Shown here piece after piece: positions 8,429-10,391 of a stretch of DNA of 64,000 nt. Source of the DNA: Escherichia coli. Lineage in GTDB: Bacteria > Pseudomonadota > Gammaproteobacteria > Enterobacterales > Enterobacteriaceae. The position numbers and the translations under genes are program-made. Every line of letters starts with the position of its first letter. The first letter of the stretch is position 1. The notes beneath the pieces were generated by a model. The model searched no databases, was not told the DNA's origin, and saw only the letters and a program-made list of their open reading frames with translations. The stretch is from assembly GCF_003334355.1 (NCBI RefSeq), contig NZ_QOWP01000001.1. One strand, given 5' to 3'.

Positions 8429-10318
8429 TTACGCATCACCACCGAAACGACGACGACCGGTAGAATCATCACGACGCGGAGCGCGGCCTTCACGACGTTC
8501 GCCGCTAAAACGACGACCATCACCACGGCCACCTTCACGGCGTTCACCGCTGAAGTTACGACCGCCTTCACGACGTTCGCCACCGAAACCACGACCACCG
8601 CCACGACGCTCACCGCCAGTATGCGGCTGTGCATCGCCCAGTAACTGCATGTTCATCGGCTTGTTGAGAATGCGAGTGCGCGTAAAGTGTTGCAGCACTT
8701 CACCCGGCATACCTTTCGGCAGTTCGATGGTGGAGTGAGAAGCAAACAGCTTGATGTTACCAATGTAACGGCTGCTGATGTCGCCTTCGTTAGCAATCGC
8801 ACCAACGATATGACGAACTTCAACACCATCATCGCGGCCCACTTCAATGCGGTACAGCTGCATATCGCCAACATCACGACGTTCACGACGCGGACGATCT
8901 TCACGGTCACCACGCGGGCCACGGTCGTTACGATCGCGCGGACCACGGTCATCACGGTCACGGAATTCACGTTTCGGACGCATCGGCGCATCTGGCGGTA
9001 CGATCAGAGTACGTTCACCCTGTGCCATTTTCAGCAGTGCCGCAGCCAGAGTTTCGAGATCCAGCTCTTCACCTTCAGCAGTCGGCTGAATTTTGCTCAG
9101 CAGTGCGCGGTATTGATCCAGATCGCTGCTTTCCAGCTGCTGCTGTACTTTAGCGGCGAATTTTTCCAGACGGCGTTTGCCCAGCAGTTCTGCGTTCGGC
9201 AGTTCTACTTCCGGAATAGTCAGCTTCATAGTACGTTCAATGTTGCGCAGCAGACGACGCTCGCGGTTCTCAACGAACAGCAGCGCGCGGCCAGCACGAC
9301 CCGCACGACCGGTACGACCGATACGGTGAACGTAAGACTCAGAATCCATCGGGATATCGTAGTTAACTACCAGGCTGATACGCTCAACGTCCAGGCCACG
9401 GGCCGCAACGTCGGTCGCAATCAGGATGTCCAGACGACCATCTTTCAGGCGTTCCAGAGTCTGTTCACGCAGCGCCTGGTTCATGTCACCGTTCAGCGCG
9501 GCGCTGTTGTAGCCGTTACGCTCAAGAGCTTCTGCCACTTCCAGAGTCGCGTTTTTGGTACGAACGAAGATAATCGCCGCATCAAAATCTTCCGCTTCCA
9601 GGAAACGTACCAGTGCTTCGTTTTTACGCATACCCCAGACAGTCCAGTAGCTCTGGCTGATGTCAGGACGGGTAGTCACGCTGGACTGAATGCGCACTTC
9701 CTGCGGCTCTTTCATAAAGCGGCGGGTAATGCGACGAATCGCTTCCGGCATGGTTGCAGAGAACAGAGCGGTCTGATGACCTTCCGGGATCTGCGCCATA
9801 ATGGTTTCAACGTCTTCGATGAAGCCCATGCGCAGCATTTCGTCAGCTTCATCCAGAACCAGACCGCTCAGTTTAGAGAGGTCCAGAGTGCCACGTTTCA
9901 GGTGGTCCAGCAGACGGCCCGGAGTACCGACAACGATCTGCGGCCCCTGACGCAGGGCGCGTAATTGCACGTCATAACGCTGGCCGCCGTACAGGGCAAC
10001 CACGTTTACGCCGCGCATGTGTTTAGAGAAATCCGTCATTGCTTCAGCAACCTGTACCGCCAGTTCGCGGGTCGGTGCCAGCACCAGAATCTGTGGTGCT
10101 TTCAGCTCAGGATCAAGATTTTGCAGCAGAGGTAAAGAGAATGCTGCAGTTTTTCCGCTCCCCGTCTGGGCCATACCCAGAACGTCGCGGCCATTCAGCA
10201 GATGTGGAATACACTCTGCCTGAATTGGAGATGGTTTTTCGTAACCCAGATCGTTAAGGGCTTCAAGGATAGGAGCCTTCAGGCCCAGATCTGCAAAAGT
10301 GGTTTCGAATTCAGCCAT
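8429..10318 (-). CDS. deaD: DEAD-box ATP-dependent RNA helicase DeaD (CsdA), 629 aa
   Basis: ORF track 8429..10384; trimmed to ATG giving [18 protein letters not shown] box and GSGKT motifs; C-terminal RGG-rich tail. Confidence 0.95.
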
Positions 10319-10391
10319 GTAGTACGTGTGCCTCAAAATTAATGGCGGCCAGTCTACATAACTCATCATGAAATTGATCAGCAATTTTCAT
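10311..10391 (-). CDS. yrbN: Small protein YrbN (26 aa) overlapping the deaD start
   Basis: Hand translation of minus strand: atg aaa att gct gat caa ttt cat gat gag tta tgt aga ctg gcc gcc att aat ttt gag gca cac gta cta cat ggc tga = [26 protein letters not shown]; matches recalled small protein between nlpI and deaD. Confidence 0.5.

Follow-up and report, generated by a model that had tools for sequence, protein, structure and literature searches.

Coupled gene pairs in operons that overlap by, for example, ATGA or ATGNNTGA use termination-reinitiation. deaD is a cold-shock gene; among the RNA helicases of E. coli, its product DeaD/CsdA is the main one in cold shock. The original tagging evidence for the small protein YrbN is reportedly that of Hemm et al. 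(2008). Rho and RNase E have been shown to act on the unusually long deaD leader, and they hold expression tightly down through it (PMC7430678). In the same work the transcription start was mapped at −838 and the deaD −10 sequence TATGAT was mutated; Rho termination in the leader was efficient, with products 400-900 nt from the transcription start, and a 720-nt leader deletion (−820 to −101) left the last 100 nt, hence yrbN, in place (PMC7430678). A 2025 review describes deaD as a case of cold-regulated Rho antitermination, 'exact mechanism undetermined', and deaD is absent from the upstream-ORF-mediated control entries of its table (PMC12360218). yrbN and its 8-nt overlap inside the 838-nt deaD/csdA leader were already described in a 2021 preprint, in which GFP fusions gave no signal with or without the yrbN segment and are uninformative because neither construct gave a signal (bioRxiv 10.1101/2021.03.08.434349). 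One table for Erwinia amylovora shows both yrbN and a DEAD/DEAH-family RNA helicase gene rising, by ~3.6 and ~3.8 log2 units respectively (PMC9371280), and a figure legend elsewhere labels a cold-induced small protein 'yrbN_PAIR_0' (PMC6001520).

We analysed a stretch of 64,000 nt of E. coli DNA (the window). The earlier note had placed a 26-codon ORF on its minus strand, starting 73 nt upstream of the deaD ATG and with its stop over the first deaD codons. This was correct to the base: the window sequence, read directly, has the ATG at 10391 and the TGA at 10313 to 10311, the distance to the deaD ATG (10318 to 10316) is 73 nt, and the two frames share 8 nt. The features of the locus are as follows.

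11382 to 10498, minus strand: nlpI coding sequence, the last two thirds of which are also an untranslated part of the deaD leader transcript
11191 to 11164, minus strand: promoter-like TTTATA-16-TATGAT inside nlpI, which agrees with the deaD promoter in the literature and puts the transcription start near 11156 (−838)
10496 to 10488, minus strand: cold-box-like TGACGTACA, directly 3' of the nlpI stop codon
10414 to 10394, minus strand: non-coding block TTTGAGCCGGTTCACACTTTT, almost invariant, just 5' of the yrbN ATG
10391 to 10311, minus strand: yrbN coding sequence, 26 codons and TGA; K-12 b4685
10318 to 10311, minus strand: yrbN/deaD overlap ATGGCTGA, 8 nt, made up of the deaD start codon and the yrbN stop codon
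10318 to 8429, minus strand: deaD (csdA) coding sequence; read from its ATG at 10318 it encodes 629 aa

By its length alone the ORF would not stand out, because 83 ORFs of at least 20 aa overlap a 5.5-kb stretch here; yrbN is lifted above a chance ORF because it is conserved among relatives. The 26-aa translation and its DNA are identical to K-12 b4685, which lies at 3307853-3307933 of MG1655 between nlpI and deaD (b3162), with the same 8-nt overlap with deaD. The earlier note took the ORF for YrbN and asked whether K-12 has yrbN elsewhere; b4685 is annotated exactly here, so the identification stands. RefSeq labels the product 'protein YrbN' among the complete E. coli genomes listed, and the translation matches NCBIfam NF033440 (small_YrbN) with 76.3 bits against a cutoff of 33 over residues 1-26 of 26. 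The 401 bases around yrbN were found in 5426/5426 complete E. coli genomes. In sequence, in position between nlpI and deaD and in the 8-nt overlap, no difference was found between the window ORF and K-12 YrbN (UniProt C1P618, NF033440). The 26-codon ORF is thus the annotated gene yrbN, which was already known. A search for structural relatives of the YrbN peptide found none, and no relative had a solved structure. YnfR was considered as a YrbN paralogue and rejected: K-12 ynfR, downstream of cspI-ynfQ, encodes MKAPSGAFLLGVYSMDTHILR, unlike YrbN.

The long 5' leader of deaD was borne out by the published start 838 nt upstream (PMC7430678) and by the matching promoter-like site in the window. 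yrbN lies at the 3' end of this 838-nt leader; within the leader no other annotated ORF has a start codon of its own, and none on the −838 transcript comes earlier. Upstream of it, nlpI contains patches of constrained synonymous sites. An Rfam search of 10200-11400 at E up to 1 gave no leader RNA family and one chance snoRNA match only. In the Enterobacterales comparison the DeaD N-terminus, MAEFETTF or MTDIIETTF, was kept from the ATG at 10318. Many database entries give DeaD 632-655 aa, and an N-terminal extension through yrbN was rejected because the extended frame has polymorphic stops in other species and its upstream ATGs are not conserved.

The comparative set comprised 47 distinct leader sequences and was confined to Enterobacterales; the genome-collection scan behind the wider sampling gave the best 80 of 370 loci, and a DeaD protein search gave near-identical proteins only among its best 120 matches. 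The yrbN start ATG AAA was invariant in the 47 sequences, and the start, the open frame and the overlapping stop were kept together in 46. In those 46 the ATGs of yrbN and deaD are 73 or 70 nt apart (1 mod 3 throughout), indels in yrbN are multiples of three with the length differing by one codon, and the overlap is 8 or 11 nt (ATGRCTGA in most species, 11 nt in Chimaeribacter and Serratia sp. Ag1). A 1-nt indel was found just 5' of the yrbN ATG, and none was tolerated inside the ORF. Substitution had produced no in-frame stop in yrbN, whereas the two alternative frames over the same stretch held 13 polymorphic stop sites between them (p ~0.005 by a rough equal-chance estimate). The T that forms the yrbN TGA occupies a 4-fold-degenerate deaD site and is T in 46/47; among the 4-fold sites of deaD, 0/78 were invariant. 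The sole exception is Serratia marcescens L079, in which a +1 insertion ends yrbN early, at the TGA within TGAGG and 11 nt short of the deaD ATG, giving a 19-aa version with an altered C-terminus. Only in this sequence, whose yrbN already ends upstream, was the T relaxed, with GCA instead of GCT as deaD codon 2. These comparisons show selection for an open yrbN frame and for a stop placed over the deaD start. The frame and stop conservation, the codon-position profile, the near-frozen synonymous sites and the weak-looking start signals, with the predicted pairing of the deaD ATG, are new here and come from the 47 leader sequences.

Selection on the integrity of the ORF, together with an annotated protein family across Enterobacterales and the near invariance of F7, E10, R13, L14, A15, E20 and A21, would be expected if YrbN were a functional small protein acting in trans, in relation to DeaD, ribosome assembly or cold adaptation, with co-transcription and overlap being ordinary operon packing. 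However, the codon-level data point away from such a protein. The invariant residues were also fixed at their synonymous positions (AGA, CTG, GCC, GCC, GCA), which indicates constraint at the nucleotide rather than the amino-acid level, and the replacements D9V, C12R, L11V and H8L were about as frequent as synonymous changes. Codons 4-6 and 17-19 were free to vary at all three positions and take almost any residue, the length varies by one codon, and S. marcescens has only the 19-aa version with its different C-terminus; the structural search named no solved relative. Codon-type (protein-like) constraint on the peptide was not seen over the 26 codons in the 47 leader sequences. We consider a trans-acting YrbN unlikely. 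Because the conserved residues are kept just as strictly at their synonymous sites, constraint on the peptide and on the RNA are inseparable at these positions, and the 'amino-acid' conservation of YrbN probably reflects mostly constraint on the leader RNA.

Codon-position entropies were 0.30/0.30/0.39 in yrbN and 0.40/0.36/0.34 in the non-coding leader, compared with 0.13/0.01/0.32 in nlpI and 0.12/0.06/0.85 in deaD; the flat yrbN profile comes from 26 codons only, so its statistical power is low. At the 4-fold sites of L14, A15, A16, A21, V23 and L24 the entropy was 0-0.18, against a deaD 4-fold mean of 1.04. Synonymous sites were nearly frozen in yrbN and throughout the proximal leader, and the proximal 180 nt evolve about three times slower than deaD 4-fold sites, clearly non-coding blocks included. 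The rare codons AGA and CTA in yrbN were invariant or nearly so. The slow proximal leader and the flat profile would fit an ORF that is only a by-product of strong conservation of the leader RNA, whose conserved blocks would be structures or binding sites (for Csp proteins, DeaD, RNase E or Rho), with translation negligible or irrelevant. Such a by-product would also agree with the initiation signals and predicted folds around yrbN, which comprise the following features.

10399 to 10361, minus strand: predicted hairpin A, with the yrbN AUG in the stem and the variable yrbN codons 4-6 as the loop
10359 to 10317, minus strand: predicted hairpin B, in which yrbN codons 11-16 (AUGUAGACUGGCC) pair with GGCACACGUACUACAU, masking the deaD AUG
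10334 to 10331, minus strand: GAGG, the only Shine-Dalgarno-like element before deaD, within yrbN codons 19-21

A check of sequence and duplexes found no usable Shine-Dalgarno before the yrbN ATG, and the AUG is partly paired in the predicted folds, so yrbN translation could be weak. The GAGG lies 12 nt from the deaD ATG with a duplex energy of −5.6 kcal/mol, and in Serratia, Chimaeribacter and Edwardsiella the spacing is shorter, at 9 nt. The initiation signals of both starts look weak. The variable yrbN codons coincide with predicted hairpin loops, and two short motifs are common to the deaD and cspA leaders, both as a by-product of the RNA would have it. Conservation of the RNA alone nevertheless does not account for a frame that never gains a stop while the other frames gain and lose 13, for indels that are all multiples of three, for a 1-nt indel tolerated just 5' of the ATG and not within the ORF, and for a T at a deaD 4-fold site that is relaxed only where the ORF has already ended. 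We regard the by-product reading as distinctly unlikely.

In the predicted folds the deaD AUG pairs with yrbN codons 11-13 and has an unpaired probability of 0.00-0.07. Covariation lends this 112-nt fold no support, and with a z-score of −1.33 it is not significantly more stable than shuffled sequence. Covariation for leader structures was not found: the E. coli minimum-energy fold scored 0.026 against 0.024 in shuffles, hairpin B had none among the leader sequences, and the four loop-proximal pairs of hairpin A that change on both sides were not above shuffled controls. All pairs of the RNAalifold consensus are invariant and so carry no covariation signal. In that consensus the GCCGGTT of the TTTGAGCCGGTTCACACTTTT block (10409 to 10403) has an alternative partner, GACTGGC (10354 to 10348), inside yrbN.

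The earlier note took the arrangement to imply translational coupling or upstream-ORF control of deaD, and this is only indirectly supported by the comparisons and by the weak initiation signals. We infer that yrbN is a cis-acting translated leader ORF coupled to deaD, for which being translated matters and the peptide does not; we give this reading about an even chance. Ribosomes starting at the yrbN AUG would read codons 11-16, which are paired with the deaD start region in the predicted fold, and would finish at the UGA, which follows the deaD AUG at a distance of 5 nt. They could then restart at the deaD AUG, which would otherwise be served only by the GAGG 12 nt off. The translation of yrbN would thus set the number of ribosomes reaching deaD, and yrbN would load the first ribosomes onto a transcript otherwise made up of ~765 untranslated nt that are open to attack by Rho and RNase E. 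The same predicted pairings leave room for a more speculative reading, in which yrbN is hardly a protein gene and is instead the part that moves in a conserved RNA switch where the deaD leader ends. The central invariant segment of yrbN, GUAGACUGGCC, would pair either with the invariant block upstream of the yrbN AUG or with the deaD start. Ribosome entry into yrbN, which temperature and the unwinding of hairpin A by DeaD would modulate, would decide deaD translation and also whether the polymerase is reached by Rho. Such a switch would supply a mechanism for cold-induced antitermination and DeaD autoregulation; we think it quite improbable.

Termination by Rho bears on a further alternative, in which yrbN is a sensor upstream ORF of the tnaC, speFL or mgtL kind. 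Its stalling or efficiency, dependent on conditions such as cold or DeaD activity, would shield or expose a Rho site, and premature termination rather than reinitiation would be controlled. Rho does terminate in the deaD leader (PMC7430678), and the downstream end of the range of products reaches the yrbN/deaD junction; deaD is listed for cold antitermination (PMC12360218), no annotated ORF with a start of its own precedes yrbN on the transcript, and the rare AGA and CTA codons are invariant or nearly so. However, base composition, a proxy only, gave no C-rich, G-poor Rho loading site in or next to yrbN, over it or just past it (78-nt windows spanning −136 to +45 had a C/G of 0.8-1.1). Mild C-richness was confined to −214 to −137 and +20 to +123. 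Conservation of a stalling-motif peptide would be inseparable from that of the RNA, and the regions shown to matter for autoregulation, −820 to −101, are upstream of yrbN. A sensor of this kind we hold to be very improbable.

yrbN itself is ordinary and already annotated, and with the anatomy known it is only a mechanism that is proposed here. It would be an obvious candidate for the step that joins leader structure, ribosome loading and termination, because it alone among the annotated ORFs of the leader has a start of its own, and its end falls on the start codon of deaD. The case is also a caution for catalogues of small proteins, as the 'amino-acid conservation' of YrbN is probably mostly that of RNA and selection is on the open frame and the stop position.

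Among the known systems, the cspA leader, of the cold-shock type with a cold box, an upstream box and a temperature-dependent fold, shares two short motifs with the deaD leader in comparable places; the 9-mer TGACGTACA lies at −178 in the deaD leader and at −153 in the cspA leader, a shared cold-box motif. It differs in that the deaD leader runs a further 660 nt upstream into nlpI, and the K-12 record has no annotated ORF between yiaG and cspA. Homology of the proximal deaD leader with the cspA/cspB leaders was rejected, as only the two short motifs are shared and the alignment is not significant: the best local score was 18 against the cspA leader, equalled by 21% of shuffles (p ~0.2), and 17 against the cspB leader, with 40% of shuffles as good. 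Like tnaC, speFL, mgtL and corL (PMC12360218), yrbN is a short ORF in a long Rho-terminated leader with its stop adjoining the regulated gene; unlike them, it has no adjacent Rho loading site by composition, and no stalling motif or ligand is known. Compared with coupled overlapping gene pairs, yrbN is unusual in having only 26 codons, without its own Shine-Dalgarno or protein-type constraint, and the coupling here is predicted. It resembles them in its stop, which comes 5 nt after the deaD start, and in the conservation of the overlap. The poorly placed deaD Shine-Dalgarno, and a deaD start that is predicted to be masked by yrbN sequence that a ribosome must read, may be further points of likeness.

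The minus-strand open reading frame that the earlier note had described before deaD, with its stop codon over the deaD start, was found exactly there, within the E. coli gene block mtr-deaD-yrbN-nlpI-pnp, which lies on the minus strand of the window. Reading of the frames gave the following anatomy.

10391..10311, minus strand: yrbN, ATG at 10391, 26 codons, TGA at 10313..10311.
10318, minus strand: deaD ATG, 73 nt downstream of the yrbN ATG.
Overlap of yrbN and deaD, minus strand: 8 nt, ATGGCTGA, read in two frames.

A length of 26 codons means little alone: the 5.5 kb around yrbN is overlapped by 83 ORFs that reach 20 aa or more. 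The proposed identity with YrbN was confirmed by annotation and by profile match. In K-12 MG1655 the gene is b4685 ('uncharacterized protein YrbN', 3307853-3307933); it occupies the same position and not another, overlaps deaD (b3162) by 8 nt and is identical to the window across the gene. The product scored 76.3 bits with the NCBIfam equivalog NF033440 (small_YrbN), whose cutoff is 33, and entries from E. coli, Klebsiella, Cedecea and Chimaeribacter all go by the name 'protein YrbN'. Each of the 5426 complete E. coli genomes had the 401 bases around yrbN, and the records listed among them annotate yrbN at the site. In a 2021 preprint that deals with the leader of csdA (deaD) (bioRxiv 10.1101/2021.03.08.434349), yrbN is placed inside the 5' UTR with an 8-nt overlap with deaD, its discovery is dated to 2008 and its function is given as unknown. 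Publications thus already cover the gene, where it lies and the suggestion of a leader peptide, and the finding is the rediscovery of a known gene in a known arrangement.

The long 5' leader claimed for deaD also stood, given the published start at -838 (relative to the deaD ATG) and a matching site in the window.

11191..11164, minus strand: promoter-like TTTATA-16-TATGAT inside nlpI, matching the published deaD promoter.

This was the sole sigma-70-like site within 10250-11300, and its position puts the transcription start near 11156. Mutation of the TATGAT -10 hexamer by Ojha and Jain abolished ~90% of deaD transcription (PMC7430678). A transcript from ~11156 begins inside nlpI, past its start codon; ~660 nt of nlpI coding sequence are followed by the 180-nt intergenic region, and the first annotated ORF on this transcript with its own start is yrbN. 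DeaD represses itself ~25-fold via the leader. The means are Rho-dependent termination and decay by RNase E, and several regions between -820 and -101 contribute; the text of that study makes no mention of yrbN, and every construct in it, the 720-nt deletion included, keeps yrbN (PMC7430678). In a 2025 review deaD figures as a case of Rho antitermination regulated by cold, 'exact mechanism undetermined' (PMC12360218). In such a leader yrbN might itself be a tnaC-like Rho sensor, but base composition revealed no Rho loading site over yrbN, and we regard this role as improbable.

Synonymous variation in nlpI was uneven. Third-position entropy was 0.18-0.34 in codons 101-120, 221-260 and 281-294 (46 Enterobacterales) and 0.8-1.0 in codons 21-40 and 161-220; the deaD value was 0.85.

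About 11082-11023, 10722-10603 and 10542-10501, minus strand: low-variation nlpI patches by synonymous-site entropy.

Every one of these patches is downstream of the point where deaD transcription starts and may therefore be an RNA element of the deaD leader within nlpI coding sequence.

Conservation of yrbN was followed in deaD loci with flanks from a single scan of a species-level genome collection (best 80 of 370), mostly Enterobacteriaceae together with Yersiniaceae (Serratia, Chimaeribacter) and Hafniaceae (Edwardsiella). These yielded an alignment of 47 distinct sequences from -97 to +14, in which the ATGAAA start of yrbN was invariant. In 46 of the 47 the two ATGs stood 73 or 70 nt apart, so that all indels there were multiples of three. 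The yrbN frame contained no in-frame stop by substitution; the other two frames of the same stretch had 13 polymorphic stop sites. The overlapping stop was retained despite differing DeaD N-termini (ATGGCTGA, ATGACTGA, ATGACTACTGA). The T that forms its TGA falls on a 4-fold-degenerate site of deaD and was T in 46/47 sequences, while none of 78 4-fold sites in deaD codons 9-200 was invariant (mean entropy 1.04 bits). The sole exception was Serratia marcescens, with a +1 insertion ~70 nt upstream of deaD; its yrbN ends early, at the TGA of TGAGG, after 19 aa (MKMTEYFLDKLRRLAAILL) and 11 nt before the deaD ATG, and only there is deaD codon 2 GCA rather than GCT or ACT.

Entropy at codon positions 1/2/3.
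yrbN: 0.30/0.30/0.39
Non-coding leader (-179 to -74): 0.40/0.36/0.34
nlpI, last 26 codons: 0.13/0.01/0.32
deaD, codons 9-200: 0.12/0.06/0.85

The kept frame and stop, taken with this profile, make selection visible on the open frame, the stop position and the RNA sequence. For R13, L14, A15, A16, E20 and A21 the whole codon was conserved (AGA CTG GCC GCC ... GAG GCA), and codons 4-6 and 17-19 varied at all three positions, accepting almost any residue. Codon 13, AGA (10355-10353, minus strand), was invariant in 47/47 sequences and codon 24, CTA (10322-10320, minus strand), nearly so (third-position entropy 0.18); AGA (Arg) and CTA (Leu) are rare codons in E. coli. The 21-nt block directly before the yrbN ATG was almost invariant, and the whole proximal 180-nt leader evolved at roughly a third of the rate of deaD synonymous sites. 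That YrbN is a trans-acting small protein seems unlikely to us; the frame is kept, and the peptide does not appear constrained like a protein, amino-acid-level selection not being visible within the limited power of 26 codons. We give still less credence to yrbN being a by-product of a conserved RNA, its translation irrelevant. What this analysis adds is evidence of conservation chiefly at the level of RNA, together with selection on frame and stop.

Canonical start signals were weak. No usable Shine-Dalgarno was found for yrbN, the best 16S anti-Shine-Dalgarno duplex being bulged, far upstream and of -3.9 kcal/mol, and the sole purine-rich element before deaD was GAGG, 12 nt from the ATG (9 nt in outgroups). 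For the final 112 nt of the leader, the E. coli minimum-energy prediction comprises two hairpins (-25.6 kcal/mol).

10361..10399, minus strand: predicted hairpin A, yrbN AUG in the stem, variable codons 4-6 as the loop.
10317..10359, minus strand: predicted hairpin B, yrbN codons 11-16 paired with GGCACACGUACUACAU.

Hairpin B would thereby pair the deaD AUG, whose predicted unpaired probability was 0.00-0.07 in 240-nt and full-leader contexts at 37 and 15 C. RNAalifold favours another helix, GCCGGUU (10409..10403) with GACUGGC (10354..10348). The leader alignment gave no covariation for either model, and the stability of the E. coli fold did not exceed that of shuffled sequence (z = -1.33). 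Both structures are hypotheses; Rfam gave no match for the leader. Predicted loops hold the variable yrbN codons and predicted stems the frozen synonymous sites, which fits an RNA-level explanation.

The best-supported reading makes yrbN a translated leader ORF that acts in cis, and we hold it at about even odds. On this reading yrbN would be translated at a meaningful rate, and translation of deaD would depend on it. A ribosome on yrbN would open hairpin B along its 5' strand, terminate 5 nt past the deaD AUG and might restart there, a process of classical termination-reinitiation coupling; through yrbN the first ribosomes would also enter a transcript that is long, untranslated and sensitive to Rho. 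Should yrbN prove to be what ties ribosome loading and Rho to leader structure when cold induces deaD and when DeaD regulates itself, that would count as a modest but real advance.

Neighbouring frames and labels were also considered.

10446-10378, minus strand: 22-codon frame ending at a TGA inside yrbN codons 4-5.

This frame starts at GTG, or at TTG TTG after the strong Shine-Dalgarno-like GGUGAGGG, which also pairs with UCACC as the 3' arm in a conserved hairpin. Several genera tolerate a 1-nt indel just before the yrbN ATG that joins the two frames (as a deletion in Phytobacter, Leclercia, Pluralibacter, Siccibacter and Kluyvera genomosp. 1). Since 1-nt indels elsewhere break it, the frame is probably non-coding; that it relays ribosomes to yrbN, which lacks a Shine-Dalgarno, is conceivable but speculative. 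In many database entries DeaD has 632-655 aa, from TTG or ATG starts in the other frame through yrbN (10318-10384, minus strand; e.g. 651 aa from TTG at 10384). This extension shows no conservation and meets stops in other species, so we rejected these as start-site miscalls. The Figure 2 legend of PMC6001520 names a cold-induced small protein 'yrbN_PAIR_0', where the text says YnfR, next to cspI. YnfR bears no resemblance to YrbN, and K-12 has no annotated second small ORF adjoining yrbN.

Overall similarity between the deaD and cspA cold-shock leaders was not significant and homology not demonstrable; two short motifs, TGACGTACA and AGGCACAC, are common to both.

10496-10488, minus strand: TGACGTACA, immediately following the stop codon of nlpI, part of a predicted small hairpin (GCUGA...UCAGC).

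TGACGTACA is identical to the core of the cspA 'cold box', a name that reportedly goes back to Jiang et al. in 1996, who are said to have noted its presence in csdA. AGGCACAC lies at -15 of deaD and at -31 of cspA. By its layout, the yrbN/deaD pair resembles translationally coupled overlapping pairs, whose anatomical features it has.
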